From a virus, in IMG/VR virus record IMGVR_UViG_2693429897_000002: a stretch of DNA of 64,000 bases. One strand, 5' to 3'. Under the pieces are notes generated by a model. The model saw nothing but the letters and a program-made list of their open reading frames with translations, searched no databases and was not told the DNA's origin. This document shows, in pieces, positions 1 through 18,430 of the stretch; positions within the stretch are counted from its first letter, which is position 1; every line of letters starts with the position of its first letter. The position numbers were made by a program, and so were the translations under genes.

Positions 1-9
1 GTATATGCT

Positions 10-772
10 GTCCGGGCTTGGCCACGCCGCTTCTTCTGCTAGGATGATGTTTGAGGCGCGTCGCTGCAAGTGACGGTCCGGGCTTGGCCACGCCGCTTCT
101 TCTGCTAGGATCCTGAAAAACTGGACACCGCCGGCCATTCCCGTCCGGGCTTGGCCACGCCGCTTCTTCTGCTAGGATGATCGCCAAGCGCATCGGCAAG
201 GAAAGCTAGTCCGGGCTTGGCCACGCCGCTTCTTCTGCTAGGATTCGGGGCGCGGCCACCGCGTCGGGATTTATGTCCGGGCTTGGCCACGCCGCTTCTT
301 CTGCTAGGATCGATATTGACGAAGCCCTCGCGCCCTATGGGTCCGGGCTTGGCCACGCCGCTTCTTCTGCTAGGATCCCCGTGACCCGGCTGATGACGAC
401 GAAACAGTCCGGGCTTGGCCACGCCGCTTCTTCTGCTAGGATAGACCATTCACGACATCCACTCCTCAACCAGTCCGGGCTTGGCCACGCCGCTTCTTCT
501 GCTAGGATATCACTGAACATGTCCCTGATGCTGATCGAGTCCGGGCTTGGCCACGCCGCTTCTTCTGCTAGGATTGACCAGATAGTCGACCGACCGGATG
601 GTCAGTCCGGGCTTGGCCACGCCGCTTCTTCTGCTAGGATGATCATGATCGACATGATCCCGAAGGTCTAGTCCGGGCTTGGCCACGCCGCTTCTTCTGC
701 TAGGATACAGGCGTCCCGTTTGAGCGCTCCATCCTAGTCCGGGCTTGGCCACGCCGCTTCTTCTGCTAGGAT
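10..772 (+). CRISPR. Type II-C CRISPR array: 12 identical 36-bp repeats, 11 full spacers (ten of 30 nt, one of 31 nt); probably continues left of the window
   Basis: GTCCGGGCTTGGCCACGCCGCTTCTTCTGCTAGGAT at 10, 76, 143, 209, 275, 341, 407, 473, 539, 605, 671 and 737. The + strand is inferred as the crRNA strand because the repeat ends in an extended -10-like TGCTAGGAT, it is complementary to the tracrRNA, and a terminator follows the last repeat. Confidence 0.99.
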
Positions 773-775
773 CTA

Positions 776-811
776 CCCCGCGCAACCTCTTGTTGCGCGG
801 GGCTTTTTCTT
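776..811 (+). terminator. Intrinsic terminator for crRNA transcripts, between the array and the convergent cas2
   Basis: Perfect 11-bp stem CCCCGCGCAAC / GTTGCGCGGGG with loop CTCTT, followed by CTTTTTCTT. Confidence 0.85.
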
Positions 812-844
812 GGCTGAGCCGCAGAAAAAACGCTCCTTGCCTGC

Positions 845-1195
845 TCAAAACAGCACGAGTTGAGCCGGTTTTTCTGCAGGGGCCTTCGATCTACGCTTGC
901 CGTGGAAAACCTGACTGAGGGCATATTGCTTGTCCGTGAAGAACAGCACCTGCACATGGCCGGGGTCCGGGACGACGTCGCCAACATGTCTTGCATAGCT
1001 CTCGGCCTTTTCCTTGCTCCACGCGTGCCGAAGATAGACCGAAAACTGAACCATTTCAAAGCCAAGGTCCAACAGATCGTTGCGAAACCGCGTGGCCCGC
1101 TTGCGTTCGGCGCTGGTCAGCACCGGCAGATCGAAAAGCACCCATACCCACATGATTCTGTATCCTGAAAGCTGTTTGAAGCCATTTTCATTCAT
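845..1195 (-). CDS. cas2: CRISPR-associated endoribonuclease Cas2
   Basis: MNENGFKQLSGYRIMWVWVLFDLPV...FEMVQFSVY motif. The ATG at 1195 overlaps the cas1 stop (ATGAATGA). The longer ORF-track start lies inside cas1. Confidence 0.95.
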   Translation of the reverse strand: MNENGFKQLSGYRIMWVWVLFDLPVLTSAERKRATRFRNDLLDLGFEMVQFSVYLRHAWSKEKAESYARHVGDVVPDPGHVQVLFFTDKQYALSQVFHGKRRSKAPAEKPAQLVLF

Positions 1196-2102
1196 CGTCG
1201 TGGACTTCAGAGGCGATGGGGATTGGCCGGTCCGGGAAGATGAGGCGCAGTTTGCCGTTTTCACACGACTGGGCGAGACTTTGCGCAAGGCGCACAAGAA
1301 CCTGAGAAAGCGGGCTTGCGCCTTGTGACGTCGGGAAATCGGCCGCAAGGCTGGCCACCAGTGCACCGCGCGCCTCGGCGACCTCGGTGATGCCCTCCGC
1401 GCAAAGGCGACGGACGATCAGGTCGACGGTGGGGCGGAAAGGCTCCATCAGATCATCGGCCAGCGCCAGCGCATCGCCGCCTGAGCGATGATGGACGGAC
1501 AAGGACGGATGCAGCCCCGCGGCCACGATCGCGCGGCCAGTCGCTGCTCTCAGAACGGCATAGCCATAGTTCAGCAGGGCATTCGCGCCCGAGGTGTCGC
1601 GGTCACGCCGAAATGCCTTGTCCATCATCAAAGGCCAATAGGCCTGCGCAGCTTGGGCCTCGCGATTGTCAGGGTCGCCGGAGCGCACGGCTGTTGCCAG
1701 TCGTCGCAATCGCTCGGAGGGCTCGTTCACGCGCTCGAGCGCCTCCGCCTGTGCGGTGATCTTGTGGCGGACCAGAGTGGCCCAGGCCTGCTTGCGAAAC
1801 GGCAATGACGCATCAGCCTGTGCCCTGATCCGATGCGCCTGCTGGAAATGCCCGTTGAGCGGCAACATTACCGCCACCGGGGTGAAGTCCTGGCCCAGCA
1901 CCATGACTGGCACCTGCCGTGCCGCAAGTTCGGCAAGCGCTGTGTTCGACCAGACCATTCCGGGACTGGCCACCAGCACCGCCTCCACATCATCAAACGC
2001 GATGCGCCCGGCCTCGCCGTCGCTTGTATCTACCGCCAGGAACCCGCGGCGCTTGTGCACCGAAAGCCCGGGCTTCGTCAGTTCCAGTATCCGTCCAACC
2101 AT
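1188..2102 (-). CDS. cas1: Type II CRISPR-associated endonuclease Cas1
   Basis: 304 aa with NREAQAAQAYW, NALLNYGYAVLR and LADDLMEPFRP motifs; lies between cas9 and cas2. Confidence 0.97.
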   Translation of the reverse strand: MVGRILELTKPGLSVHKRRGFLAVDTSDGEAGRIAFDDVEAVLVASPGMVWSNTALAELAARQVPVMVLGQDFTPVAVMLPLNGHFQQAHRIRAQADASLPFRKQAWATLVRHKITAQAEALERVNEPSERLRRLATAVRSGDPDNREAQAAQAYWPLMMDKAFRRDRDTSGANALLNYGYAVLRAATGRAIVAAGLHPSLSVHHRSGGDALALADDLMEPFRPTVDLIVRRLCAEGITEVAEARGALVASLAADFPTSQGASPLSQVLVRLAQSLAQSCENGKLRLIFPDRPIPIASEVHDDE

Positions 2103-2158
2103 GAGAGCCTCCTTTAGGGAATGCGCCCGAGCGGTTGGCCTGCCTGTTAGCCCATTTT

Positions 2159-5100
2159 CTAAACTGTCCCATGCGGGATCGTGTGAACCCGCCCCAATTC
2201 GTCGATCCGCACGCGCCGGGCGCGGCGGAGCTTCAGTTTGCTGATCGTGGCAAGATCCCAGCGGAAGGGATCGTTTGGCTCGTTGTGCCGTTCGTCAAAC
2301 TTGCCTGCGTCGTTTATGCCGACGAGCCGCATTCTGTTGGCGCTCGGTTCCAAGCGTACGATCCTCTTGATCTGGTTGCTTCCTTCCACGACACACTTGT
2401 TTCTGTCGTCCCAATCGAACACTTGAATGGTGTCATTCTTGTGGACGCGCATGATGAAACGTGCGCTGGGGTGCGCGACGTTCCAGGGCTCGGCCCCACC
2501 CGAGTTTGCCGCCCAGATGTCTGTGGCGTGCTGAAACCATGTGCCGTCAGGCGCTTCTAGGATGTCGAGCCAGGAGATTTCACCGGGCACCAGCCATTTG
2601 TAGGGCTTGCCATCACGGTCATGAACGGGGCGAACGCCAGCTTCGGGCTTCAGGATACGCAGTTTGCGGTGGCCGGTTTCCTGAACCCATTTCGCCAGCG
2701 CCTCGGGCAGGCGCTTCTTGCGCTCTGCCTCCGGCAAGGATTTGTCGCGGGCTAAACTGGTGGCATCCTGCAGACTGAGGCGCATCTTGACGTCGCGCAC
2801 CTGTCCGATTTCCTTTTCGGTCAAGCCGGTTATGGGTTTGCGCACAACGACATTGCCGATGGTGCGCTCGGCCTGGTTCTCTGGCACATCCCGCACAAGA
2901 CCAAAGACTGTATCCTCATGCAGCCTGCCGCTGGTCTGCGATGGATCGGTTGGGTCGATGCTGCCGTGTTGCGCACGATGGCTGACGTTGACCTTTTCGA
3001 CGGCAGCCAGCACGGCGTCGCGGAAACCTTCGAAGGGTTCTGGCGGCGCGGGTAACACGCGGTCCAGCCGCTCCACCCCCAGGTTCCGCGCATGGGTCTG
3101 CAACACCTGCACCATCCGCCGGTCGATCACGCCCACCACGGCGGCGTCGATCGCATGGTGGCGGTGATCGTCGCGTGACTTACGGTTGTGATCGCCCAGG
3201 TTCAGACCCCAGCGGTGCCGCAACATCGCGGTCATGCGACCGGGCAGGACCCAGACATGGCTGCGTCGCTTGCCCTCGGCATCGGTTTTCGGGAACAGCG
3301 CCTCGGTATAGGCGCGGACAACTCGGGCCAGATAGCCGGTGGCGTTCAACTGGCGATCCTCGAAACCGCGCGTCTCTTCCCATTTTTCCATGGCACCGGG
3401 CAGAAACCGCCAGGCCTTGTTGGCGGGCAGGTGTTTCGTGCGCCCGATGATGGCAGCCAGATCGAAGAAGTCTGGCTGCCGGTCGGCCGCTGCAGCCGGC
3501 GACAGCTTGCCCTTGCGGCGGTTGGCATCGCGGAAACACAGGCTCTTGTTGGCTGGACTGTCGTCGAAGGTTTGCTCGAAGGGCAGGATATGATCGATCT
3601 CGATCTCGTCGGAATGCAGCTGATGCAGCGCGATGGGGCGACCGGTGTAGGGACAGAGCCGATCTGCCGGGCCTCTGCCAATCTCCTCCCATAGGCGCAT
3701 CCTCAAGAACCGGTCGCCGATCCGCGCGCCTTCCACCAGCAGCCCCGCTTTCTGAAGCTCGGCACGCCAGCGATCATTGCGTTTTTCGTTGTCGCGGATG
3801 GTTTTCTCGATCTTGTTCAGTTCCTCGGCTGACTTGGCCATGTCTCGCGTGGCCTCGATGACGACCTGCGCAGGCTTACCGTATTCTGCGATCAGCGCAT
3901 TCATCACGCGCCGGAACTGGCCCAAGGCGATGTGCACGGTCGGGTTGGTGATCCGGCCATAGCGCAGCAGGTCCGTGTCTTTCGGATCGCTGGTTCCGTT
4001 GCCGATCATGCGCTGTAGAACGGGCAGCCGGTTGTAGGGCGGCAGGGTATCGACGCCTTCTTCGGCCTGAAAATCGGAGTGGTCCAGCCCCGCCCCGCCA
4101 AGCAAAGGCGCGCGCCGGACGGCTTCGTCATAGGGAATGACGTCGCAGCGCAGTTTTTCGACAATCGCCTGCGTCGCTGTCTTGCAGAAACGCAGGTGAC
4201 CGTCCGGCAGTGGGATCTTCTCGACCCTTTCCGCCACCTCGCGAGAAAGCCCGAGCCTTTCCATAAGCCAGCAGATGAGCTCTTCCGGGTCTGCGACCTC
4301 CGATATCTGCCACAGGATTTCCTCTTGCGTGGCGCTGTCGAGGGTCGGCCAGAGCGTCGCCAGCGGTCCGGGTTTCTTCGTATCGCCCAGCAGTCGTGCC
4401 GCCACGTCATTCCGTGCAAGCTCCTTCAGGCCGCCCTTTTCGAGGTTGAACTCGGCCTGTGACGGCAGCTTCAGGGTCTTTTTCAGGCCCGACCATGACA
4501 GTTTTGTTCCAGCCATCAACGTACGCGCGACAAGATCCCGCGCGGTGATGTCCAGTGGCTGTTCGCCTTGATCGTCGACGATGCGCAAATGGTTGAGCTG
4601 TGACAGGATCAGAAACTCCTGTGCGGCCGGGTGCCAGCGCGGCAGCCGGTCCTGATCGGGGAAGAATGTGCATTTCCCCGGACGGACGGGGCGCAGGGGG
4701 CGCTGAAAGAAGATGGTGTCGCGCAGCCGCTCGTGCATCGCTTCGGTCAGGGACGGGTGGAAGCCCGCTTGGATGGCCCAGATGTGATCGAACTCGGCCT
4801 CCAGAAGAGCGCGTGTCGGGTAGAATTCGTAGGACAGCTTTGCGCCGTCGCCTGCCGGGCGTATGCGCGTTCCTTCACCTCGGACGAGGCGCGCGTGCAG
4901 AAAGGCGCCGTATGTCGGGTGCCCGTCTGCCCTCAGTCGCTCTAGAAGGGCGGCCGAGGCGATCGCGATCTTGCCCTTTTCATCCGCATCCTTGTCGGCG
5001 CGGCGGTTGCTCTTGAAACCGCGATGTTTCGACATGTGCCAGAGTGCCCGGCCAAGTTGTTCCAGAGCCACCTGTTCGCGCGCGGCCCGAGCCCGTGCTT

Positions 5101-5398
5101 CGATGGGATTTGCGGCAAAGACCGCGCTGCGGGCATCTGCATCTGATGGCAGCAGGCCAAACCCGATCAGGTCATCGAGCAGCCGCTTCCTTCGTCCCAG
5201 GCTTCGATCCTGCCTCCGCCTTGCGCCGCGCGGCATTCTGCGGCCAGCGGCATTCGACTCCTTCGACTGTGGATCCCGACCGTTTGGGAAGATCCTCACC
5301 CCTGTCCTTTCAATGGAAGCGGGCCGCGTGTCATTGGTCAAGCGATAGACGGCCCAGCCAAGGGAGTTGGTTCCGAGGTCGAAAGCGAAACGATACAT
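2159..5398 (-). CDS. cas9: Type II-C Cas9 (1079 aa), catalytic motifs intact
   Basis: RuvC-I FAFDLGTNSLGW, Arg-rich bridge helix, RuvC-II VIEATRD, HNH IDHILPF...DANRRK and RuvC-III RHHAIDA; RBS GGAGG upstream; no csn2 or cas4 in the operon. Confidence 0.98.
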   Translation of the reverse strand: MYRFAFDLGTNSLGWAVYRLTNDTRPASIERTGVRIFPNGRDPQSKESNAAGRRMPRGARRRQDRSLGRRKRLLDDLIGFGLLPSDADARSAVFAANPIEARARAAREQVALEQLGRALWHMSKHRGFKSNRRADKDADEKGKIAIASAALLERLRADGHPTYGAFLHARLVRGEGTRIRPAGDGAKLSYEFYPTRALLEAEFDHIWAIQAGFHPSLTEAMHERLRDTIFFQRPLRPVRPGKCTFFPDQDRLPRWHPAAQEFLILSQLNHLRIVDDQGEQPLDITARDLVARTLMAGTKLSWSGLKKTLKLPSQAEFNLEKGGLKELARNDVAARLLGDTKKPGPLATLWPTLDSATQEEILWQISEVADPEELICWLMERLGLSREVAERVEKIPLPDGHLRFCKTATQAIVEKLRCDVIPYDEAVRRAPLLGGAGLDHSDFQAEEGVDTLPPYNRLPVLQRMIGNGTSDPKDTDLLRYGRITNPTVHIALGQFRRVMNALIAEYGKPAQVVIEATRDMAKSAEELNKIEKTIRDNEKRNDRWRAELQKAGLLVEGARIGDRFLRMRLWEEIGRGPADRLCPYTGRPIALHQLHSDEIEIDHILPFEQTFDDSPANKSLCFRDANRRKGKLSPAAAADRQPDFFDLAAIIGRTKHLPANKAWRFLPGAMEKWEETRGFEDRQLNATGYLARVVRAYTEALFPKTDAEGKRRSHVWVLPGRMTAMLRHRWGLNLGDHNRKSRDDHRHHAIDAAVVGVIDRRMVQVLQTHARNLGVERLDRVLPAPPEPFEGFRDAVLAAVEKVNVSHRAQHGSIDPTDPSQTSGRLHEDTVFGLVRDVPENQAERTIGNVVVRKPITGLTEKEIGQVRDVKMRLSLQDATSLARDKSLPEAERKKRLPEALAKWVQETGHRKLRILKPEAGVRPVHDRDGKPYKWLVPGEISWLDILEAPDGTWFQHATDIWAANSGGAEPWNVAHPSARFIMRVHKNDTIQVFDWDDRNKCVVEGSNQIKRIVRLEPSANRMRLVGINDAGKFDERHNEPNDPFRWDLATISKLKLRRARRVRIDELGRVHTIPHGTV

Positions 5399-5448
5399 AG
5401 GCCCTCCGAAATGCTTGCCAAGCCAGCATATTCCGGGATACCCTAAAA

Positions 5449-5535
5449 TTCCTAGCAGAAGAAGCGGCGTGGTCTTTCCCGCGATAAGGTTAAAACCACA
5501 CCATTGGGGCAGGCTGCGGCCTGCCCCATCTGTTT
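5449..5535 (+). ncRNA. tracrRNA, divergent from cas9
   Basis: 23-nt perfect anti-repeat TCCTAGCAGAAGAAGCGGCGTGG (5450-5472), then CCCGCGAT able to pair with the repeat 5' end, an AAGG nexus with a GGTTAAAACC hairpin, and a 10-bp hairpin TGGGGCAGGC-TGCG-GCCTGCCCCA followed by TCTGTTT. Exact ends are inferred. Confidence 0.92.
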
Positions 5536-5921
5536 CAGACCGATTGCCTGGATGTCTGCGCTTTCCAATCCAGCGGAAACGGCTCCATCAAATTCGCCAG
5601 CGTCACGTCCGGCCCCTGTGTTCCGTCCACGATTGCCTCGACTATGTCCGGTGCCAGCAGCGTCAGACGTAGGACGCGCGTCATGTAGGACGGCGCGATC
5701 CCCTCGCGTTCAGTCAGTTCGGCGATGGTGGCAAACTCCCCGGAATCCACCATGCGCTTCCACCGGTATGCGCGTGCAAGCGCCTTGACCAGCGTATTGT
5801 CGTTCCGGCGCGACTGCGCGACTCCCTCCGGCAGTTGCATTTCCTTGCGGCCGCCGCGCTTCACGACACCGAATGGGACGTGGAGCGTCACCGTCTCGGG
5901 GATCGGCGCCCCGCGGGTCAT
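5535..5921 (-). CDS. Conserved HTH-type protein downstream of the large serine recombinase
   Basis: 128 aa; paralog of 34975-35373 (LVKALARAYRWKRM...IAEL...EGIA..YM.RVLRLTLLAPDIV); ATGA overlap with the recombinase stop. Confidence 0.8.
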   Translation of the reverse strand: MTRGAPIPETVTLHVPFGVVKRGGRKEMQLPEGVAQSRRNDNTLVKALARAYRWKRMVDSGEFATIAELTEREGIAPSYMTRVLRLTLLAPDIVEAIVDGTQGPDVTLANLMEPFPLDWKAQTSRQSV

Positions 5922-7243
5922 GCGGCCGCACCCATATCGCCGGCCAGCATCTCGCGCGCGAGGCCGGCGAGACCGTCAACGCGCAGCCGGACATTCAGGC
6001 CGTCCGCGCCGATGTCTACGCGTTCGACCAGCAGCGCCACGATGCGCGCCTGCTCGGCGGGGAAAAGTTTGTCCCACAGCGGTTCGAGCTGCTGCAACGC
6101 CGCGCGGGCGTCGGCCTCGGTGATGTCGTCGGCATGGGCGCGGGCGGCCTTCCACGTCCCTGCGACGATCTCTGGCTGGCGGAATACGGCGCGAAGCTGG
6201 TCGATCACTGCGGCCTCGATCTCGCCCGCTGGCACGCGGCCGATGGGGCAGGATCCAGCACCATGCTTCAGCACGGTCTGACTGACATAGTAGCGGTAGA
6301 GACGATCCCCCTTCCGGGTATGCGTCGGTGAGAACGCGGCGCCATCTGGGCCGAACAGTAGCCCCTTCAGCAGCGCGGGCGTGTCGGCGCGTGTGCGGGC
6401 GGCGCGCTTCCGGGGGCTCTCCTGCAGGATGGCGTGAACCTTGTCCCACATCTCGCGCTCGATGATCGCGTCATGCTCACCGGGATAGCTGTCGCCCTTG
6501 TGGACCGCCTCGCCAATGTAGGCGCGGTTGTTCAGCATCCGATAGATGAACTTCTTGTCGATGCGGTGGCCGCGGCGGGTCGTGACGCCGCGCGCGGCCA
6601 GTTCCCGCGCCAGCACGGTGCCCGAGCCGATCTCGATGAAGCGGGCGAAGACCCAGCGGACATGTGCGGCATCGCCGGGGTTTTCCACCAACTTGCGGTC
6701 CTTGACCACATAGCCCAACGGCGGGACGCCGCCCATCCACATGCCCTTGCGGCGGGAGGCGGCGATCTTGTCGCGAATGCGTTCGCCGGTCACTTCGCGC
6801 TCGAACTGGGCGAAGCTGAGCAGAATGTTCAGCGTCAGCCGTCCCATGGACGTGGTGGTGTTGAAGGACTGGGTTACCGAGACGAAGGTCACCCCGTTCC
6901 GGTCAAACACCTCGACAAGTTTGGAAAAATCCATCAGCGAGCGCGACAGGCGGTCGATCTTGTAGACCACCACCACGTCGACGAGCCCGTCTTCGATGTC
7001 GGCCAGCAGCCGTTTCAGGCCGGGGCGTTCCAGCGTGCCGCCAGAAACCCCACCGTCGTCATACTGGTCGCGCACCAGCACCCAGCCCTCGGAGCGTTGG
7101 CTGGCGATGTAGGCCTCGCAGGCCTCCCGCTGGGCGTGGAGGCTGTTGAACTCCTGCTCCAGCCCTTCTTCCGAGGATTTTCGGGTATAGACGGCGCAGC
7201 GCAGCTTGCGGAGCACCTTCGATTTTTCCGGTGGCTTCGTCAT
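5918..7243 (-). CDS. Large serine recombinase (integrase), 441 aa
   Basis: CAVYTRKSSEEG catalytic motif, VVVYKIDRLSRS and FAQFERE plus recombinase DNA-binding domain; real start MTKPPEK at 7243 overlapping the DUF2924 stop. Confidence 0.93.
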   Translation of the reverse strand: MTKPPEKSKVLRKLRCAVYTRKSSEEGLEQEFNSLHAQREACEAYIASQRSEGWVLVRDQYDDGGVSGGTLERPGLKRLLADIEDGLVDVVVVYKIDRLSRSLMDFSKLVEVFDRNGVTFVSVTQSFNTTTSMGRLTLNILLSFAQFEREVTGERIRDKIAASRRKGMWMGGVPPLGYVVKDRKLVENPGDAAHVRWVFARFIEIGSGTVLARELAARGVTTRRGHRIDKKFIYRMLNNRAYIGEAVHKGDSYPGEHDAIIEREMWDKVHAILQESPRKRAARTRADTPALLKGLLFGPDGAAFSPTHTRKGDRLYRYYVSQTVLKHGAGSCPIGRVPAGEIEAAVIDQLRAVFRQPEIVAGTWKAARAHADDITEADARAALQQLEPLWDKLFPAEQARIVALLVERVDIGADGLNVRLRVDGLAGLAREMLAGDMGAAA

Positions 7244-7686
7244 GTCCGCCCCCTGTGGTTTTTCAGCCCGAAGAACACCCAGCCGTTCCAGCGCGTGCCG
7301 GTGATGGCCCGGGCGATCGCGGACAGCGACTTGTACGGCCGCCCCTGCCATTCGAACCCGTTCTGCAAGACGGTCACGACCTGCTCGACGCCTTGATACT
7401 CGCGGAGCAGCCTTGTCCCGGCGATCGGCATCATGTCGGCGCGGATGCGGCTCTTCTTCCGGTCGCCGCCGTCCAGGTCTTCGCCCAGCCGTTCGAGCCG
7501 CCGGATCGTCTCGGGCTTCAGCCCGCCATAGGCCAGTTCCTGGATACGATAGGCTAGGCGGCTTTCCAGATATCGCCGGTTGAACGGCGGTGGCGCGCTG
7601 TCGAAGAGCTCGCGCCACTGCTGCTTCAGGTCGGGCGTCGGGGTCGTCTTCAACGCGGCCAGGCGCGCGGGGATCGGGTCGGTCAT
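7240..7686 (-). CDS. DUF2924-family protein
   Basis: MTDPIPARLAALKT...LAYRIQELAYGGL...GTRLLREYQG...YKSLSAIARAITGTRWNGWVFFGL; paralog of 36674-37123. Confidence 0.88.
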   Translation of the reverse strand: MTDPIPARLAALKTTPTPDLKQQWRELFDSAPPPFNRRYLESRLAYRIQELAYGGLKPETIRRLERLGEDLDGGDRKKSRIRADMMPIAGTRLLREYQGVEQVVTVLQNGFEWQGRPYKSLSAIARAITGTRWNGWVFFGLKNHRGRT

Positions 7687-7877
7687 GCAACTCTCCGTTT
7701 TGGGGTGGTTGCATGACCGCTCTGGTCGGGCGGAAAGTGAAGCGAAGTTTCTCCATCCACAGCAGATACTTCTGCCGCGTCTCTCATCTTCAATCGGCAC
7801 AGGCCACGGGCGAGAATGGCGCAAAGCTCGGCGCGGCGTTCGAGCGGCTTCATAAGGGCTGCAGGATAGGGGTTCAC
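7683..7877 (-). CDS. Small conserved protein upstream of DUF2924 (64 aa, GTG start)
   Basis: ERRAELCAILARGLCRLKMR is homologous to ERRAELCRLLAAGLVRLRMR at 37120-37323; overlaps both neighbours by 4 nt. Confidence 0.6.
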   Translation of the reverse strand: MNPYPAALMKPLERRAELCAILARGLCRLKMRDAAEVSAVDGETSLHFPPDQSGHATTPKRRVA

Positions 7878-10198
7878 GCCTCGGGCTCCCCGGTCATCCG
7901 GACAGAAATGCCCTGCCAACGTCGTGCACCGGGGCTGCGGGCCGGACGAAACCCTCGCTGCCGCATCGCTTCGCCTAGCGACTTCTGTGAACCTCTGGGA
8001 ATGCCGTTCCGGTCGGCGAAGCTGGACCAACTGCCGAAGAGATCAGCCGCGGTGGCTCGTTGGGAGGGGCCAGTGATGCACTGCTCTGCAATCCACTGCC
8101 CGAAGAGATCCTCGTCCGCAAAATACTCTTCTACTGCTTCCAGAATCGTGGCCGGCGGCGCGAGTCCGATCCGCTGCCATTCGGTACAGCCCTTGAGCAT
8201 CCAGCCGAGAATGCCGTCGCGTTCTGCGGTGAGAGCGTCTTCGATGGATGCGTCACGTCCTTGATCCGTGAACGTCACGGTGAAGGGCACGAGGTGCAGC
8301 CGCCGCCGCATCGCTTCGCCGACACCGTTCAATCGTGGGCGATGGTTTCCTGAGATGATCAGCTTGAACGAGGGGGCGAATTCGAAGAAGTCGCGGTGCA
8401 TGAACCGCGCCTTGATCGGATCGCCACCGGTGATCGTCTTGATGCGGGTCTCGGCCCAGGCGCGTCCTTCTTCGGTCTCCGTGACAGTCACCAGGCGTGC
8501 GCCGCGCAGTCCTGCGAGGTCAGTTGGATGCCGTTCTCCTGAGGCCGCCATGAAGGTGTCGAGTGGCGCTGTGGTGGCATAGCTGCCCATGACGGCCAAC
8601 AGCGTCTTCAGGAGTACGGATTTGCCGTTGCCGCCAGCGCCATGCAGGAAGAAGAACACCTGTTCCCGCATTGCCCCTGTCAGGCAATAACCGCTCAGCC
8701 GCGCCAGATAGGCGGCAAGTTCGTGGTCGCCACCGGTGATCTCGTCGATGAACCTCTCCCAGCGCGGGCAGCTGGAACCCGGGGATGCGATTGTGATCTG
8801 GGTGAGCATCCGCGCCGGATCGTGGGGAAGCACTTCCCCCGTCGCGAGGTCCACGATTCCATCGGGCGTATTGAGAAGCATCGGTGCCTGGTCCCAGGCG
8901 TCGCTGCTGGTGGCCGTCTGGGGATCCGTTGCGGCGATGCGGAGCACTGCGGCGATGGTCTTATCGGAGGCGATGCGGCGCGCCTCAGAGGGTTTGTCGT
9001 GGCCCACTACAGCGGCCCGGCAAACCTGCCGAACCGCTTCGCGAACCGCGCCAAGCTCGTCTTTCGCCCAGTACGTACCGTCCCAATACATCCAGGTGCC
9101 CCAAATCGCGACGTGGCGCCAGACTTGCCCGACGGTCGCAACGAAGCTGGCGGCAAGAGCATCCTCGCTCAGCTCAGGTATCGGCAGAACAAGGGCGTTC
9201 TTGGCCAGAGCGGCGGGGATTGGCCCGGTGCTCCTTGTGTCGCGCTGGAGGAGAGCGTCGAATTCCTGGCGGAGACGGTCGTCGGGCCAAGGCGGCGCAA
9301 TCACGGCGGCATTGTGGTTCTGGACGGCGTCCCAGGCCTCGTCGAGAGTTATCTGCCCCGATCGCGCCTGCCGGATCCAGTGCCCGATGACCCTCGAGAG
9401 CGCGTCAAAACGCGTGGTCCCGTCGGAACCCCCTTCCCGGATCACGCGAGTCATCAATTGGCGTGCCGTTGGGCCCGGCTTTGCCGTGGGTGTCGATGCG
9501 GGGATTATCGCCTGCCCGGGGAGAACCGGCATTCTTGCCACCGCCTCCGCAAACTCGTCGAGGTCGTACTTTTGTGCAGAGCGGCCGACGATGCGCACGA
9601 TCGCGCGGCGGCCCTGTTTGCCATGGATCGAGCCGGGCACGCGGATTGGCTGATGGGCGCTGCCGAAGGAGGGATCACCTCCGGCCTTCAGAGCAAGGAC
9701 TTTGCGCAACCGACAGATGCGGCCAATGTCGTCACCCCGACCAGCTTCGGTCAGGCACCAGTAGATGTGAAGCTTGTCGGCGCCGTCGCTGGTCTTGCCG
9801 CCGGACGCAACCTCGAGCGTTGCCACGCCAAGATGCTCCACCAGATGGGCGCGCTTGGCCTCAATGTCGCCTTCGTCCAGATCGACGAGAATGACCGCCA
9901 TCTCGCAAACTTCGCGCGCCTTTGCACTGCCTGGCTGAGCCACCGTCCCAGGCACGATGAAGATGCCGCGTCCCTCGCGCGCCGCGCGTTCGGCCTCAAG
10001 CACGATTGTGCCCGCCAGGTACTGGCCGACCGGAGGATACTTGCTCCAAGGCTTGCCAGCCTGCGTACCTTTCTCGGTCAGCAGGCGGACCGGAACGAAG
10101 CCATGAGTGTCGCCAAAGACGAGGTCGAGGAAGTCGGCGATCGCAGTTGCATCGGGAGAAAATTGGTCGGGATGTGGGGGCGTGCGAGAAGCGTTCAT
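7874..10198 (-). CDS. Phage/plasmid primase-helicase (RepB-like primase N-terminus plus P4/D5 SF3 helicase), 774 aa
   Basis: ILVDLDEG, KLHIYW, HQPIRVPGSIH, Walker A GAGGNGKS and ISGNHRP; homologous to 45170-47539; start MNASRT at 10198. Confidence 0.9.
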   Translation of the reverse strand: MNASRTPPHPDQFSPDATAIADFLDLVFGDTHGFVPVRLLTEKGTQAGKPWSKYPPVGQYLAGTIVLEAERAAREGRGIFIVPGTVAQPGSAKAREVCEMAVILVDLDEGDIEAKRAHLVEHLGVATLEVASGGKTSDGADKLHIYWCLTEAGRGDDIGRICRLRKVLALKAGGDPSFGSAHQPIRVPGSIHGKQGRRAIVRIVGRSAQKYDLDEFAEAVARMPVLPGQAIIPASTPTAKPGPTARQLMTRVIREGGSDGTTRFDALSRVIGHWIRQARSGQITLDEAWDAVQNHNAAVIAPPWPDDRLRQEFDALLQRDTRSTGPIPAALAKNALVLPIPELSEDALAASFVATVGQVWRHVAIWGTWMYWDGTYWAKDELGAVREAVRQVCRAAVVGHDKPSEARRIASDKTIAAVLRIAATDPQTATSSDAWDQAPMLLNTPDGIVDLATGEVLPHDPARMLTQITIASPGSSCPRWERFIDEITGGDHELAAYLARLSGYCLTGAMREQVFFFLHGAGGNGKSVLLKTLLAVMGSYATTAPLDTFMAASGERHPTDLAGLRGARLVTVTETEEGRAWAETRIKTITGGDPIKARFMHRDFFEFAPSFKLIISGNHRPRLNGVGEAMRRRLHLVPFTVTFTDQGRDASIEDALTAERDGILGWMLKGCTEWQRIGLAPPATILEAVEEYFADEDLFGQWIAEQCITGPSQRATAADLFGSWSSFADRNGIPRGSQKSLGEAMRQRGFRPARSPGARRWQGISVRMTGEPEA

Positions 10199-10422
10199 GC
10201 TGGTTCTCCCCCAATCCGGCGGGACGCATCCTCGAAGGCGATGATGTCGTTGGAGCGGTAGAAGACACTGCCGCCGATCTGCAGGTAGGCAGGGCCGGTG
10301 CCCGCCCGACGCCACCTTTGCAAGGTACGGACGGATTTGTTCCAGCGTTTTGCGACGATGTGTTCGGGTAAAATCGGGCCGTCCCGATGTCCCGCACCCT
10401 CCTGGTCACATTGATGTTGCAT
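10195..10422 (-). CDS. Xis/AlpA-like helix-turn-helix protein
   Basis: VAKRWNKSVRTLQRWRRAGTGPAYLQIGGSVFYR is a typical HTH_17/excisionase pattern; 4-nt overlap with the primase start. Confidence 0.85.
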   Translation of the reverse strand: MQHQCDQEGAGHRDGPILPEHIVAKRWNKSVRTLQRWRRAGTGPAYLQIGGSVFYRSNDIIAFEDASRRIGGEPA

Positions 10423-10502
10423 GCCTGATCTCCTGCGGCACCAAAATCGGCACCTAACTCATACATAATGACGTGAAATCAGTGTGTTACGCGAGGATCG
10501 TG

Positions 10503-10610
10503 GCGTGACGCCTCCCGTCGCGCTCCGTGACATTTTGGCGGGAAAAATGCAGGAAATACCGTGCGTCAAGCGTTGCTGCGTGACACGAACGCGCTGCTCC
10601 GTGACATTCT
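10503..10610. repeat. Two tandem copies of a bipartite GCGTGAC-N-GCTCCGTGACATT direct repeat (operator or iteron candidate)
   Basis: CGTGAC at 10504, 10526, 10579 and 10600 (spacings 22 and 21 bp, about two helical turns); the second site of each pair reads GCTCCGTGACATT. Confidence 0.7.
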
Positions 10611-10644
10611 TGGAGAATCGGTCATCGTCGGGCGATTGCGTTTG

Positions 10645-12537
10645 CTACTTCGATTGGTCCCGATCCACGATCTTGCAGGTCGGATCGAGTCGGTAGCCGC
10701 GCTGCGGCTTGTTCTCGATTAGCAGATCCCGTGGCGGGTCATGCCCCTCAATTGCACGGTAGAATTCCGCCAGCGCGTCCCGGCAACGCTGCACGCATTT
10801 GCGCACAGCAGCTTTGCTGACATGAACGGGAAGGAACAGGGACATTGCCGGAACGAAGGTGTGGTTGTCGGAGTTCAGCCCTTTCTTCTGGTCCTCTTCG
10901 TAAGCCGGGCGCAGCAGGTGGGCGGCGCTGGCGGACCGCCCGCGTACCTCGCCGAGGCCTCTGACTGTGATGAGGTCATCCTTACCGTCATTGTGAAACG
11001 CAACCTGCAGGGGAAAGATGCCCGTATCGCGCGTGCCCGCGTCGAGGGTAGGCGCGGCGACAGAGGGCTCTGCAGAAACATACCTGCCACGCGCGAGGCG
11101 GGGCAGGCTTGGCGTTCCTGGCGGATCATTGAGATAAAGGCGCAGAAGGGAAGTCACAGGCAAACTTCGAGAGACAAGGTCGGGCGCATATTTGGCGACG
11201 GCGTCTTCGAGGGCCTTTTTGACAGTGTTCGAATGGCGCTGGTGCAGGGCAATGATCCGCTGCAAGGCGTCGGTTCCGGAAAGGTTTGGGAGGCCTTCGA
11301 CGATCCGTAGCAACTCGCTGCCGAAGCGATCCATCCAGTCTCGCTGGCTGAGGTCTGCCAGCCGACAGGCATGTGCTATCCAATCGAGCGCAATGGTGCG
11401 CGATCGCCCTGCATCGCGCGCGCCGCTGATGACGTCGGTGAGGTACATATCGTCCGGTTCGTGAACGTGCAGACCGGTGGCCAGCATGGCAAAGCGCCGG
11501 TCGAGACATTGCGAGCAGGCTCCGCAGTGGGTGTGCAGTACCGATTGATCGCGGACCTGAGTGCAACTTATCGATGTCTTGATCAGATCGGCCCCGCCAT
11601 TCTCGGTAAGACGCGTGATCACCTCCGCCTTGGTCAACCAGGCAAAGCGGTTCTCTATCGGGATGGGCGAGCCACCCAAGGTGTCGAGAAAGGCCCCGAG
11701 TTTGACGAGCGACAGAGGATGCGTGGTGCGGGTGGCCATGGTGCCGATCACCTGAGTACTGATCGGGAGGTTATGACTGACGATCCCGTTTTCGTAGAAG
11801 GCGATCCGTTTTGCGCCCAGCATGCGGGCCACCACATAGGCGAGCGATGCGAAGAGAAAGGATCGGGATCTTTGTGTGGTTTCTGCGGCCTCAGAACCCT
11901 TGCGTGTGGCGCGGATGGGGATGTGCAGGATGCGACCAGGAAAGCGCTTCTTCAACGCTTCTATGAGGAGTTTCTGATGCTTTATGATCTTGTTCGCCGA
12001 GAGGTGCGTGACGAGGGCGATGCGCCCTGGCCCTTGGGTCAATCGCTCTACCGCGCCGGAGAGCGAGTCGAGCCCCCCAGAAAACAGGAGGACATCCTCG
12101 ATCTGACCACTATGCGCGGAATCCCCCGCAAAGTCGAAATACTGCTGCGGGCCAATGCTTTGGCGCCCTTTGTGAAACTCGAACGCCACCTCGTCGTCGG
12201 TCAGAAACTCGACGGCGTCGACAAGAGCCGCCGTGACTTCGGGACGATTCCAGATATCGGGGCTGCGCACAGGGATGCTGAAGGTCATTCGCCGCCGCCA
12301 CCCCGCGCCGAACTCGGGCCGGGTCGCGCCACCGCGCGGAACGGAACTGTCGGCGGCGAAGACCGACGCAGCAACATCAAGAAGGTCGAGGAGAAGCTCG
12401 TTGGCGGGCACCAGCAATTGATGCTCGATTGGGTCTGTCTGCAGGTCGAACGTGGGGTTTGCGCCATTGATCCGGATGACCATGTCCCGCACGCGGTCTT
12501 GTGACCCAGTCTCGACCCGAACCAATGTCTCAGTCAT
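10645..12537 (-). CDS. QueC-like (QatC/Cap9-like) PP-loop enzyme with C-terminal winged-helix DNA-binding domain, 630 aa
   Basis: LLFSGGLDS PP-loop; QRSRSFLF, ENGIVS, TRTTHP and Zn site SC...HCGACSQCLDRR; C-terminal AVRKCVQRCRDAL...IENKPQRGYRL resembles an OmpR-type wHTH; start MTETLV overlaps the partner stop (ATGACTGA). Confidence 0.85.
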   Translation of the reverse strand: MTETLVRVETGSQDRVRDMVIRINGANPTFDLQTDPIEHQLLVPANELLLDLLDVAASVFAADSSVPRGGATRPEFGAGWRRRMTFSIPVRSPDIWNRPEVTAALVDAVEFLTDDEVAFEFHKGRQSIGPQQYFDFAGDSAHSGQIEDVLLFSGGLDSLSGAVERLTQGPGRIALVTHLSANKIIKHQKLLIEALKKRFPGRILHIPIRATRKGSEAAETTQRSRSFLFASLAYVVARMLGAKRIAFYENGIVSHNLPISTQVIGTMATRTTHPLSLVKLGAFLDTLGGSPIPIENRFAWLTKAEVITRLTENGGADLIKTSISCTQVRDQSVLHTHCGACSQCLDRRFAMLATGLHVHEPDDMYLTDVISGARDAGRSRTIALDWIAHACRLADLSQRDWMDRFGSELLRIVEGLPNLSGTDALQRIIALHQRHSNTVKKALEDAVAKYAPDLVSRSLPVTSLLRLYLNDPPGTPSLPRLARGRYVSAEPSVAAPTLDAGTRDTGIFPLQVAFHNDGKDDLITVRGLGEVRGRSASAAHLLRPAYEEDQKKGLNSDNHTFVPAMSLFLPVHVSKAAVRKCVQRCRDALAEFYRAIEGHDPPRDLLIENKPQRGYRLDPTCKIVDRDQSK

Positions 12538-13312
12538 CGGCACCCCGTTTGTGGCGGAGTTCTTCGGAAATCTTCTTGAAGGCCACGGCGCCAAACACCG
12601 TCGCCTGCTGCGTTGAGATGGCGCCGTCCCGATAGACGGTCTTGCCGTACCATCCGCCGGCAAACTCCCGAATGATGCGGGTGGCCTCAAAACAATACTG
12701 GGTCAGGGCGGCGTCGAAGCCCGAGCGAGCTTCCATGCTCCGAAAGCGCAGGCCGTCTCCGACATGTGCAGAGAGGGTCCGGTCGAGCCAAGAGTGCAAT
12801 GTGTCAGACAGTAGCCGCGTGTAAAAGCTACGCGCAAGAGAAGAAAACCGTGCGGATTGCGCAAAGCCGCGCGCAGCATCCCGAACATCGCTAGGTGTTG
12901 CTTCGAACAGGCTCGGCATGGCGTCCGTCATTGCGCTCGAGAGGGTCGAGAGCAGCGCCTTGCGTGCGAGTTCCCCGAAATCGCTGCGGTGCCCGAGGCT
13001 GCGCGCGACAAGATCAAGGTGCCGCCCCGTGGCAGAGAGGATTTGCAGGAGGTCCGGCGACGAGGCGACAGCAATATCAAGATCGCGCAAACCTTGGCCG
13101 AAGTCTGGCGATCGGGCCGCTTGCGGGATCATGGCGAGCAGGCGAACGCATTCGACGAAGAGCGGATCGTGTGCGGCTCGATCCAGGTCACGCTCGGCGG
13201 CAAGCGCGCTGGCTTGCAGAACCTCTTCATCCGGAAGGCCGTCTTCCAGAAGTGCCACGACCTCGCGCCACTTCTTCGAACTGGGCAGAACGCCAAGATG
13301 AATATGGCCCAT
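12530..13312 (-). CDS. Hypothetical alpha-helical partner of the QueC-like enzyme (possibly QatB-analogous), 260 aa
   Basis: Clean ORF starting MGHIHLG, translationally coupled to the QueC-like gene; function inferred from context only. Confidence 0.75.
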   Translation of the reverse strand: MGHIHLGVLPSSKKWREVVALLEDGLPDEEVLQASALAAERDLDRAAHDPLFVECVRLLAMIPQAARSPDFGQGLRDLDIAVASSPDLLQILSATGRHLDLVARSLGHRSDFGELARKALLSTLSSAMTDAMPSLFEATPSDVRDAARGFAQSARFSSLARSFYTRLLSDTLHSWLDRTLSAHVGDGLRFRSMEARSGFDAALTQYCFEATRIIREFAGGWYGKTVYRDGAISTQQATVFGAVAFKKISEELRHKRGADD

Positions 13313-13585
13313 TGGTTCTGGTTCCCTAGCGCGTAAGGGATTTCAACCCTGCGGTGAGCGTATTGTCAATTCAAAGATGGCATGGGTGGTTCGGCCGCGG
13401 CGGAGGTCTTCGGTACCTCATGATCACATGACGGATGTGACAGTAGGATTGGTAATTGTTTCCACGTGCGCGCGTGAGACAGAAACCCTTTTCTTCTGTC
13501 ATATCCGTCATACGCAATTACACCTCGGACTCTTGCGCGTTGGGAAGAGCGATGGCGCGAATGCTTTTGGCGTGGCATGACGCAC

Positions 13586-13643
13586 AATGTCGAGAAATGT
13601 CAAATAATGTCATTTTTACAATAGTTTACGCCTTTGATATACT
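13586..13643 (+). promoter_or_regulatory. Sigma70-like promoter of the rightward operon, preceded by three 10-bp-phased AATGTC boxes
   Basis: TTTACA (13615-13620) N17 TATACT (13638-13643); AATGTC at 13586, 13596 and 13606. Confidence 0.7.
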
Positions 13644-13702
13644 GCCCCTAAGGCATCCGTCCCCGCGATTTTGTCTAGCCGGGGGTCAGCAGGGGATCAG
13701 GC

Positions 13703-15004
13703 ATGACGAAGGCAGTGCGAGGCGACGAGATCGGGGCTGTTCCGCAAGACCGGGCGGCACTGGCGAGCGGGGCGGGCCTCGCGATCACACACCGCCCGCT
13801 CGGGGATCTGGTGCCCTATGCGCGCAATGCTCGCACCCACAGTGAGGCGCAGGTGGCGTTGCTGGCCGGGGCGATCCGGGAATACGGGTTCACCAATCCT
13901 GTGCTGGTCGATGGCGAGAATGGCATTATCGCGGGACATGGCCGGGTGATGGCGGCGCGCAAGCTTGGCCTCGCGACGGTGCCGGTGATCGAGTTGGGCC
14001 ATCTCACGGAGGCGCAGAAGCGGGCCTACATCCTCGCCGACAACCGGTTAGCGGAACAGGCGGGTTGGGACAGCACGATGCTGGCGCTGGAGGTGGGCGA
14101 GCTCGATGCGCTCGGCCTCGATCTTGGCACGCTGGGATTCGAGCCCCGTGAGATCGATGCGCTGCTGCGCGGCGATGCGGCCGACCCGCGCGAGGACGAG
14201 GTGCCCGAGGCGCCGGCCGTTTCGACCTCCCGGCTGGGCGATCTGTGGCAGTTGGGCGCGCACCGGCTGCTGTGCGGCGATGCCACGGACGCGGGCGGCG
14301 TGACGCGGCTTTTGGCGGGTGTTGCGCCGCACCTAATGGTCACCGATCCGCCCTACGGCGTGATGTATGATCCCGACTGGCGCAACCGGGCCGGGGCCTC
14401 TGAGACCAAACGGACGGGCAAAGTCCTTAACGACGACCGAGCCGACTGGCGCGCCGCCTGGGCGCTCTTTCCCGGCGACGTGGCCTATGTCTGGCATGGG
14501 GCGCTGCATGCCACCACGGTTGCGGACAGCCTCGAGGCCGCGGGGTTCAATGTCCGCTCGCAGATCATCTGGGCGAAGGAGCGGCTGGTGCTGAGCCGCG
14601 GCGACTATCATTGGCAGCACGAACCCTGCTGGTACGCGGTGCGCAAGGCCGCGACGGGGCACTGGAGCGGCGATCGCAAGCAAACCACGCTCTGGCAGAT
14701 TGCCAGCCGCGATCAGGATGCCGAGACCATCCACGGCACGCAAAAGCCGGTCGAATGCATGCGCCGGCCGATCCTGAACAACTCCAGCCCGGGGCAGGCG
14801 GTTTATGAACCCTTCTCCGGATCGGGGACGACGATCATTGCCGCGGAAAGCACGGGACGCGCGTGCTACGCCATCGAGCTTGATCCGGCCTATGTCGATG
14901 TGGCGATCCTGCGCTGGCAGGCGTTCACGGGGCAGAAGGCACGGCTTGAGGGGGGCGAAAGTTTCGCCGAAATCGCAGTCGCGCGTTCGGAGGGCGCGCC
15001 ATGA
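13703..15004 (+). CDS. ParB-like N-terminal domain fused to an N6/N4 DNA methyltransferase
   Basis: PYARNARTHS, IIAGHGRV and YILADNRLAE (ParB); TDPPY, HGTQKPVE and VYEPFSGSGTT (MTase). Confidence 0.92.
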   Translation: MTKAVRGDEIGAVPQDRAALASGAGLAITHRPLGDLVPYARNARTHSEAQVALLAGAIREYGFTNPVLVDGENGIIAGHGRVMAARKLGLATVPVIELGHLTEAQKRAYILADNRLAEQAGWDSTMLALEVGELDALGLDLGTLGFEPREIDALLRGDAADPREDEVPEAPAVSTSRLGDLWQLGAHRLLCGDATDAGGVTRLLAGVAPHLMVTDPPYGVMYDPDWRNRAGASETKRTGKVLNDDRADWRAAWALFPGDVAYVWHGALHATTVADSLEAAGFNVRSQIIWAKERLVLSRGDYHWQHEPCWYAVRKAATGHWSGDRKQTTLWQIASRDQDAETIHGTQKPVECMRRPILNNSSPGQAVYEPFSGSGTTIIAAESTGRACYAIELDPAYVDVAILRWQAFTGQKARLEGGESFAEIAVARSEGAP

Positions 15005-15261
15005 GACAGTCACACCGCCTTTTCACGCTCAAGGCCGCGGCCAATGTCGCGGTCGGCTATGGTGTCACCGCGCTGCTGCAACTCGCGCTGTTCCCGGTGG
15101 CGGGCCTTAGCCTGCCGCTGGTCCAGTCACTGAAGCTCGACCTCGCCTTCACGCTGGCCTGGCTCGCACGCATCTATGTACTCCGGCGTGCCTTCGCGCG
15201 GTGGGGGCGCGAGAGCAGGCGCGCAACTACCTCCCAGCCTGATCTCGCCGGGGGTGCTTGA
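15001..15261 (+). CDS. Small hydrophobic phage protein (DUF7220-like)
   Basis: MRQSHR...ANVAVGYG homologous to 51739-51963; ATGA overlap with the upstream gene. Confidence 0.6.
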   Translation: MRQSHRLFTLKAAANVAVGYGVTALLQLALFPVAGLSLPLVQSLKLDLAFTLAWLARIYVLRRAFARWGRESRRATTSQPDLAGGA

Positions 15262-15692
15262 TGGCACGCCAGCCGATGCAGTTCTCGGATGTGCAGAAGG
15301 CCGAGGTCGAAACCCTGGCCGCAGTGCTGTCGTCCGAGCAGATCGCCGATTACTTCGGGATCGGGCGGCGCACCTTCTATGACATGATGGCGCGCGACGA
15401 GGAAATCGCCGCACGCTATAAACGCGGCAAGGCCAAGGCGATCGGGGCGATAGCCCAGGGTCTGATCACCAAGGCGCGCAGCGGAGATACAGCATGCATG
15501 ATCTTCTATCTCAAGACGCAAGGCGGCTGGCGGGAGACCGCGGTCGTCGAACATGCCACCGTGCCTGATGACAGCACAGTAGCGCAGCGCCCGGTGAGGC
15601 AAATCCTGCTCGAGAGGTTGAATGCGCTGGCCCTCCGGCAGCAAGGAGTGCCGGACCTGATCGAGGGCGTGGTCGGGACGAGCGGGTCATGA
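15258..15692 (+). CDS. HTH protein resembling a phage terminase small subunit / DNA-packaging protein
   Basis: EQIADYFGIGRRTFY HTH followed by YKRGKAKAIGAIAQGLITKARSGDTACMIFYLKTQGGWRE. Confidence 0.6.
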   Translation: MMARQPMQFSDVQKAEVETLAAVLSSEQIADYFGIGRRTFYDMMARDEEIAARYKRGKAKAIGAIAQGLITKARSGDTACMIFYLKTQGGWRETAVVEHATVPDDSTVAQRPVRQILLERLNALALRQQGVPDLIEGVVGTSGS

Positions 15693-16207
15693 TGCGCGGT
15701 CGCAAACCAAAGCCCACGGCGATCCGGTTGATCGATGGTAACCCCGGCAAGCGCGGCTACAACGCTGACGAGCCGGTGGCGCCAGAGGGGGAGATCGACT
15801 GCCCGCCCCATCTGTCGGACGTGGCCACCGAGGAGTGGCGGCGTATCGCGGGGGCGCTTCAGGACATGGGCGTGGTGACGTTGGTCGACCGCGCGGCGCT
15901 GGCGGCCTATTGCCAGTCGTACGGCCGCTGGGTCGAGGCCGAGGAAAAGCTGAAGGAGACGCCGACGCTGGTGAAGACGGCCTCGGGCTACATCCAGCAG
16001 AACCCCTGGCTTACCGTCGCCAACAAGCAGCTTGAACTGATGGGGCGCTACATGGGCGAGCTTGGCATCACACCTGCATCGCGGAGCCGGGTCGCCGCGT
16101 TCCAGAAGGATGCCGGTCCGCAGGTCACGACGATCCGAATTATCGGCGGCCTGCCGCAGGACGGCGATGCCGGAACGATTGATGCGAGCGACATCGATCT
16201 TCTGTAG
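15689..16207 (+). CDS. Phage terminase small subunit, P27 family
   Basis: MRGRKPKPTAIRLIDGNPGKR...LAAYCQSYGRW...NPWL...ELGITPASRSR. Confidence 0.88.
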   Translation: MMRGRKPKPTAIRLIDGNPGKRGYNADEPVAPEGEIDCPPHLSDVATEEWRRIAGALQDMGVVTLVDRAALAAYCQSYGRWVEAEEKLKETPTLVKTASGYIQQNPWLTVANKQLELMGRYMGELGITPASRSRVAAFQKDAGPQVTTIRIIGGLPQDGDAGTIDASDIDLL

Positions 16208-16282
16208 CCGCTTGGGGCCGCCGCCAGCCAAAAATCCGAATTCGGATCAATACCTTGCCGTACACTCTGCTCGCTTTTGATG

Positions 16283-17682: not shown

Positions 17683-17685
17683 TCC

Positions 17686-18410: not shown

Positions 18411-18430
18411 TCGGTCCTCATGTCTTGGAA

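Follow-up and report, generated by a model that had tools for sequence, protein, structure and literature searches.

The DfCas9 CRISPR-Cas locus as probable cargo of a tRNA-Ser-integrating temperate phage family

A type II-C CRISPR-Cas locus beside a serine-integrase operon

The IMG/VR virus record IMGVR_UViG_2693429897_000002 is a stretch of 64,000 nucleotides (here the window) that corresponds to G000:C33:125573-189572, where G000 is the source genome and C33 the contig. It opens with a type II-C CRISPR-Cas9 locus that abuts the integrase operon of a phage-like element, and this locus and its carrier are the subject of the present analysis. The part of the CRISPR array in the window (positions 10-772, plus strand) has 12 identical 36-nt repeats and 30-31-nt spacers. 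In the contig, the full array (C33:124591-126344) comprises 27 identical repeats with 26 unique spacers, and its start is 981 nt beyond the window's left edge. An intrinsic terminator 3' of the last repeat (776-802, plus strand) closes the pre-crRNA transcript, and it is followed on the minus strand by cas2 (845-1153, 102 aa; Pfam CRISPR_Cas2, E = 8.8e-15), cas1 (1188-2102, 304 aa; Pfam Cas_Cas1, E = 7e-27) and cas9 (2159-5398, 1079 aa; HNH_4, RuvC_III and Cas9_a domains). Among PDB entries, the encoded Cas9 matched Cas9 structures with a best E-value of 1.7e-54. Neither csn2 nor cas4 was found at the locus in the open reading frame (ORF) map or with Pfam, and positions 845-5398 and the interval from cas2 to the array hold nothing else. 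As only cas1 and cas2 accompany a cas9 that encodes both RuvC and HNH nuclease domains, with csn2 and cas4 absent, the system is therefore type II-C, and the repeat array is matched by a tracrRNA with an anti-repeat.

The tracrRNA lies at about 5450-5535 on the plus strand, with the anti-repeat at 5450-5473, a nexus, and a terminator hairpin at 5505-5528. Its duplex with the repeat has 25 contiguous perfect base pairs and a bulged extension, and the two RNAs cofold at -88.9 kcal/mol compared with -51.7 +/- 2.5 when the repeats are shuffled. The stop codon of the next gene, encoding a 128-aa protein, is at 5535-5537. The hairpin ends 6 nt away from it, just as an earlier reading made from the sequence alone (the sequence-only reading) had placed it, and the tracrRNA shares its final T with the stop. 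The same reading took the whole locus to be within the window; that is so for the cas genes and the tracrRNA, but the start of the array and the true end of the element lie beyond the left edge.

The nuclease itself is already known. The sequence-only reading had suggested that it might be DfCas9, and this identification was borne out by the repeat and by positions 5450-5535, which, optical character recognition noise aside, are the DfCas9 crRNA and tracrRNA given in the supplement of Fedorova et al. (2020, PMC7708072). The DfCas9 system of Defluviimonas sp. 20V17 was described there as having a 1079-aa protein, 36-nt repeats and 30-nt spacers, and the enzyme was active in interference in E. 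coli and in cleavage in vitro, with NNRNAY as the protospacer adjacent motif (PMC7708072). The present locus has the same 36-nt repeat, tracrRNA, 30-nt spacers and protein length, and judged by these features its cas9 is the DfCas9 gene or nearly identical to it. At least 30 repeats were reported in the DfCas9 study versus 27 in the present assembly; the array may have collapsed in assembly, or the strain may be different. The published contig broke off at the locus, which lacked its leader side (PMC7708072), and for that reason its genomic context had not been seen before. That context is not discussed in the DfCas9 study, so the sequence-only reading was right to suspect that it had gone unnoticed. 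The junction with a tRNA-Ser gene at an attachment (att) site, the large serine recombinase (LSR) cassette and the prophage setting are additions of the present analysis, and this mobile context is, as far as we found, undescribed.

The cassette next to the tracrRNA consists of three genes on the minus strand. The 128-aa small gene (5535-5921) has no Pfam match but belongs to phrog_14161 'recombinase' (E = 3.7e-37), and its counterpart in phage AcaML1, Gp2, is termed 'recombinase small subunit'. It is preceded by LSR1 (5918-7243; Resolvase, Recombinase and Zn_ribbon_recom domains; phrog_95 integrase) and by a DUF2924 gene (7240-7692, start approximate; phrog_11806), so that the LSR lies between the DUF2924 and small-subunit genes. 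From an alignment, LSR1 likely starts at a conserved Met, in an ATGA overlap with the DUF2924 stop codon. A paralogous cassette 2 (34975-37123, minus strand; 132-aa small protein, LSR2 and a DUF2924 protein encoded at 36674-37123) forms the left end of a second prophage in the window, and its products are 71%, 82% and 86% identical, respectively, to those of cassette 1. The same gene order is found at the extreme left end of the prophage of AcaML1 (JX507079), an isolated temperate phage of Acidithiobacillus caldus, in which the LSR (Gp3) is 52.7% identical and Gp4 occupies the DUF2924 position. AcaML1 targets the 3' end of ssrA, the transfer-messenger RNA (tmRNA) gene, with 10-bp repeats, whereas the present family targets tRNA-Ser. 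Elsewhere in the source genome, a third and distant DUF2924/LSR cassette (43-46% identical) is at G000:C59:16860-18687, and 37 kb from it, at G000:C59:55135-56003, are a C-terminal piece of an LSR and a small gene.

Attachment arms and recurrence of the module

Left of the array, a tRNA-Ser(GCU) gene at C33:124182-124271 ends 320 nt from the first repeat and 1.3 kb before the window starts. A conserved stretch of about 190 nt, here called c190, begins straight after the 3' end of this tRNA (...CTCCGCCA). An LSR-alignment scan of 185,579 species genomes yielded 80 loci in many alphaproteobacterial genera, with LSR identities of 61-88%. In 29 of these the cassette is followed downstream by a tRNA-Ser gene on the other strand, and c190 is recognisable by BLAST in 25. 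It is directly 3' of ...CCGCCA in those 25 loci as well as in G000, a further genome (G013) and Ruegeria alba. The tRNA-Ser anticodons at the LSR loci are gga (11), gct (7), tga (7) and cga (3). In eight loci and on contig C26 of G000, c190 is preceded not by a tRNA but by a conserved pseudo-tRNA arm, the P arm (consensus GGAGAAGGTTsGAc...CAGgCCCaTCCCCTCCGCCA), and P::c190 forms an attP-like P::P' junction. ARAGORN found no tRNA or tmRNA at the P-arm sites, and Rfam found no RNA gene. As c190 adjoins four tRNA-Ser isoacceptors or a P arm, it cannot be the native flank of any one tRNA gene but is borne by the element. Where the tRNA-Ser junction could be read in a genome of the same genus (G002) and one of the same family (G022), the 3' sequence is unrelated to c190.

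The sole other P arm in G000 is at C33:216676-216711 (attR site, 216676-216716) and is followed by an unrelated flank, and it therefore marks attR. The attL and attR sites have in common a 14-nt block, TCTCCGCCACTTGC, and are 92.4 kb apart. The element accordingly has defined attL and attR sites, whose short shared core falls where a tRNA-like gene ends (3'), and the att inventory of G000 comprises one P' arm (attL), one P arm with an unrelated flank (attR) and one P::P' junction (on C26). Direct repeats of the tRNA 3' end in the contig were chance-level 13-15-mers only, except for a 14-mer at C33:216703, which is the attR. At another locus, L056, a P arm lies 2.3 kb beyond the DUF2924 gene, and the genes past it encode a helix-turn-helix (HTH)-cupin regulator, an aminotransferase and an alcohol dehydrogenase; the metabolic genes indicate host DNA. 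Given the junction left of the array and that no att-like arm is present at 5400-5535, between the end of the integrase operon and the tracrRNA, the CRISPR locus lies inside the element.

The same Cas9 module is found in Ruegeria alba 1NDH52C, where tRNA-Ser(GCU), c190, leader, array, cas2, cas1, cas9, tracrRNA, small gene, LSR and DUF2924 follow in that order. Nucleotide identity with G000 is 80.5% over 8.26 kb and stops at window position 7853, just past DUF2924; cas1 is 93% and cas9 86% identical. The 17 R. alba repeats are identical to those of G000, yet the two arrays have no spacer in common, so independent spacer sets stand behind identical repeats. Past the cassette, the R. alba element encodes a CI-like S24 repressor, an AAA_24 ATPase and a helicase, and further on a ParB-methyltransferase (84% identical to that of prophage 2 in the window), TerS, TerL (83%), a portal (phrog_21) and a major head protein (phrog_29). 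Read up to the contig end, before the tail genes and attR, this carrier looks like a complete prophage. P-arm matches in R. alba are on contigs C1, C23 and C11, not on the Cas9 contig.

Scanning metagenomes for Cas9 gave 11 loci, and in nine of the ten with upstream DNA the small gene, with the LSR where the contig reaches, is directly upstream of cas9. These cassette-linked Cas9 proteins are 58-94% identical to the query. Three of the loci (L151-L153) have 11-12 spacers in common. In L152 and L153 the order is P arm, c190, array, cas genes, small gene and LSR, and the two agree at 97-99% identity from the LSR across c190 and over roughly 35 nt of the adjoining P arm, past which they have nothing in common. 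Judged from the alignment, this breakpoint is the pattern that would be expected from the same module joined to different partners through recombination at the att core. The Cas9 cluster at 90% identity has 75 members. In a survey of the bacterial family with one genome per genus, 26 of 401 genomes have a Cas9 homologue; all are at most 63% identical and, G000 excepted, none lies within 1.5 kb of a small gene or LSR. Three congeners of G000 that were searched gave no Cas9. As Cas9 also occurs outside such cassettes and was not found in the three congeners, it is accessory and has moved between chromosomal and phage contexts. A decayed relative, L165 (G361:C19:4298-12116), has cas9 split in two frames, cas1 retained and no repeat array, and what remains of its c190 comes after AT-rich DNA instead of a tRNA or P arm; it was left out of the comparison.

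Several features of c190 and of the att regions were observed in addition. In a 28-sequence alignment, the sole supported RNA structure in c190 is a terminator hairpin in the opening bases. Past the hairpin, about 120 nt are conserved without supported RNA structure (L001:18750-18880; columns 50-175 of alignment A2), and two sequence classes co-vary at columns ~80-90 and ~141-152, one of CTGTTAACCGG type and the other of CTGAGCACTGG/CTCATGACTGC type. These co-varying stretches may be protein-binding sites of the integration machinery. The contig with the attP-like junction (G000:C26:1-8293, locus L022, 8.3 kb; P arm at 1623-1658, c190 at 1659-1840) has on its P side an ORF (23-1012) with a nuclease domain like that of the contact-dependent inhibition (CDI) toxin EC869, and on its c190 side genes for a tyrosine recombinase of 720 aa that includes DUF6538 and for a protein of 723 aa; no LSR is on this contig. 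A 95-nt sequence at C33:217872-217966 recurs at 100% identity at ten contig ends, two of them those of C33 itself, and looks like the terminal part of a multicopy insertion sequence (IS) that breaks the assembly. In a sister species, the island after tRNA-Ser (L015, G001:C31:28596-30558) is 99.3% identical over 1.96 kb to G000:C37:327147-329109, which is beside another tRNA. The ychF gene next to it reaches just 87% identity, which suggests that a different island was transferred recently.

The cargo slot and its carrier

The interval between c190 and the cassette, here the slot, could be delimited at both borders in 39 related loci, and defence genes in it were identified by PADLOC. Slot length ranges from 0.26 to 9.4 kb, the shortest (L067, 264 bp) being essentially empty. 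Firm PADLOC defence genes are present in 21 of the 39 slots and weak ones in three more, while about 13 slots are unclassified. Type I restriction-modification (R-M) systems occupy ten slots and type III R-M systems four firmly and three weakly; type II methyltransferases are found in L030 and L044, PDC-S36 in three loci, a Ppl/AriA-like ATPase in one and Cas9 in one (L053, that of R. alba). In G013, the slot holds a type II methyltransferase and a 245-aa partner, with the cargo beginning 10 nt after the small-gene stop. In G000, the slot is filled exactly by the leader, array, cas2, cas1, cas9 and tracrRNA. The content is thus variable and defence-enriched at a fixed position between conserved flanks, in agreement with the sequence-only reading that the position behind the LSR cassette is a defence hotspot. 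The hsdM gene which that reading saw in the slot of cassette 2 is indeed there (34082-34819, minus strand), but as a remnant, the first 245 aa of a type I methylase of about 810 aa; the remainder is not in the contig. In AcaML1 the slot has only one gene, of 157 aa, and CRISPR-Cas is absent.

In the hotspots of P2-like phages and P4-like satellites, interchangeable anti-phage systems likewise occupy one set position that is flanked by conserved phage genes (Rousset et al. 2022, PMC9122126). However, they were reported without large systems such as CRISPR-Cas or type I R-M (PMC9122126), whereas the present slot accommodates 7-9 kb systems, among them R-M of types I and III and the full Cas9 locus, and is bordered by an att arm on one side and by the 3' end of a serine-integrase operon on the other.

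On the other side of cassette 1, the early and packaging genes of what we call element 1 (7874-17025) encode a D5 primase, a QatC-like protein, a ParB-methyltransferase, two TerS-like proteins and a resolvase-like protein, and no TerL, portal or capsid gene is present between 5535 and 17025. The resolvase-like gene (16315-17025, plus strand, 236 aa; Resolvase and HTH_62) comes after TerS here and in L048 (74% identical), and in L043 a homologue (83% identical) is about 1.6 kb from TerS; given this recurrence, it is a conserved phage gene and not debris. Next is a decayed structural module (17221-21337, plus strand), colinear with prophage 2. In it, a copy of the prophage-2 gene at 60319-60948 (phrog_6367) has lost its N-terminal part (17305-17682; aa 84-208, 81% identical), a tail-terminator gene is split (18558-18626 and 20056-20346) by an IS256 with its transposase at 18680-19771, and a tail-tube gene is reduced to its first half (20897-21337). 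Genes for an HTH protein and a phrog_3445 'toxin' (17686-18410, minus strand), which lie between the phrog_6367 fragment and IS256, are a candidate toxin-antitoxin pair. The body of prophage 2 (37320-64000) has genes for a helicase, D5 primase, ParB-methyltransferase, TerL gpA, lambda-type portal, capsid and tail tube and runs on past the window to attR. It belongs to the same family, is apparently complete and sits together with element 1 between a single attL and a single attR.

Given the above, the DfCas9 locus is very probably the cargo of a family of temperate phages that integrate at tRNA-Ser and whose integration module is related to that of AcaML1. Other explanations deserve weighing against this one. 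The CRISPR-Cas9 locus could be chromosomal, with an LSR element merely integrated beside it and the attL/attR junction between 5535 and the tracrRNA. The integrase operon does end at 5535, LSR genes are often near the att site, and Cas9 homologues of 56-61% identity in two genomes, G124 and G415, are outside such elements. Yet positions 5400-5535 have no att-like arm and the tracrRNA overlaps the stop codon of the operon; the junction, when looked for there, was found instead at tRNA-Ser left of the array, and c190, which is element-specific, also lies left of the array. In addition, L152 and L153 have a P arm rather than a tRNA ahead of c190, array, cas genes, small gene and LSR, and the cargo of G013 starts right past the small-gene stop. 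A chromosomal locus is thus hardly tenable. A mobile unit smaller than a phage would be an autonomous mini-island of c190, cargo, small gene, LSR and DUF2924 that is only sometimes joined to phage bodies, as might be suggested by the homology between G000 and R. alba ending right past DUF2924 and by the element at L056, which is just 13.6 kb long (cassette, type I R-M and IS). However, temperate phages are commonly mosaic, with breaks where modules meet, the IS in L056 may mean that it is a deletion product, phage early genes are upstream of the cassette at most loci, and the cassette families are PHROG families found at the left end of an isolated phage. We regard such an island as unlikely.

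As to the carrier, the sequence-only reading left the choice between a satellite and a prophage-like element; that Cas9 is element-borne held up and the element is a prophage, not a satellite. A purpose-built satellite without capsid genes, resembling a phage-inducible chromosomal island (PICI) and packaged by a helper such as prophage 2, would agree with the gene content of 5535-17025 (an integrase cassette, D5 primase, ParB-methyltransferase and two TerS-like genes, with TerL, portal and capsid missing) and with the adjacency of TerS and the resolvase-like gene, seen again in L048 and at wider spacing in L043. Against it, the truncated phrog_6367 gene, split tail-terminator gene and half tail-tube gene are colinear with prophage 2, and element 1 is therefore a decayed prophage rather than a designed satellite. 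It does not show structural genes lacking by design, a compact conserved size or ends of its own. No right-end P arm is found near 17 kb, and the R. alba carrier looks like a full prophage. Such a satellite is accordingly very unlikely.

Some observations weigh against the locus being phage cargo as proposed here. Element 1 is unable to make virions by itself. No P or P' arm is present between the two LSR cassettes, and the boundary between elements 1 and 2 is lost, probably with the IS256 and IS66 insertions and a block of sugar genes at 21.8-30.3 kb. The comparison with relatives lacking the island that the sequence-only reading proposed did not demonstrate an empty tRNA-Ser site for G000, as ychF/tRNA-Ser contigs of relatives end at 0.3-2 kb or bear other islands, and the 1.16 kb to the right of attR have no homologue in 40 relatives and end in a multicopy IS. 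The array spacers have no target in the source genome, in about 160 fetched loci or among INPHARED phages; no protospacers were reported for the DfCas9 array in the published study either (PMC7708072). With the present Cas9 as query, no relevant relative was found among IMG/VR viral contigs or INPHARED phages. Lastly, the link between Cas9 homologues and LSR cassettes, which the sequence-only reading had raised, holds for R. alba and the nine metagenome contigs but not for the family survey or for the homologues in G124 and G415, which have no LSR or c190 within 10-15 kb.

Proposed mechanism and significance

In the mechanism that we propose for the phage family, the module of DUF2924, LSR and small subunit would carry out recombination in which the P::c190 site is joined to the tRNA-Ser 3' end, resulting in the integrated order of tRNA, c190 (as the P' arm), variable slot and 3' end of the integrase operon. 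The opening bases of c190 would provide the tRNA with a new terminator hairpin. Together with the terminators at 776-802 and 5505-5528, that hairpin brackets the slot, and such bracketing would make the slot genes expressible from the lysogen independently of the phage lytic genes. Slot genes expressed in this way may shield the host, and hence the prophage, against competing phages and other mobile DNA, and with cas1 and cas2 present this immunity would be adaptive. Homologous recombination at the conserved flanks, c190 and the integrase module, may swap cassettes, and tandem integration at one tRNA, as in G000, would favour such exchange. The elements may also be mobile at present, with excision, circularisation and packaging, to which the attP-like junctions in the assemblies point indirectly. 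More tentatively, it is possible, if somewhat short of probable, that the clade of II-C Cas9 proteins with about 58-100% identity resides mainly on temperate phages of marine Alphaproteobacteria as a swappable, att-proximal adaptive weapon against rivals, in a slot that trades whole 7-9 kb systems across conserved flanks.

Cas9 systems are usually treated as chromosomal host immunity. Vibrio phage ICP1 is said to carry a type I-F CRISPR-Cas system, and huge phages reportedly bear CRISPR-Cas as well. Phage-encoded CRISPR-Cas is presumably used against competing genetic elements. Unlike those systems, the one described here is type II-C, combines Cas9 with cas1, cas2 and long arrays, and is found on alphaproteobacterial temperate phages of ordinary size. 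The locus joins two known kinds of arrangement, the prophage defence hotspot and phage-borne CRISPR-Cas, and our literature searches found no specific precedent for prophage-borne type II-C systems.

A Cas9 system that is complete, adaptation genes included, and active in experiments is placed in a defined cargo slot of widespread serine-integrase phages, a slot that in relatives holds R-M systems of 8-9 kb. The serine integrase is moreover defined together with its attP and attB arms. With culturable Defluviimonas and Ruegeria strains, the family may offer a tractable model of phage-borne adaptive immunity, and such phages would provide a natural route for the horizontal spread of Cas9.

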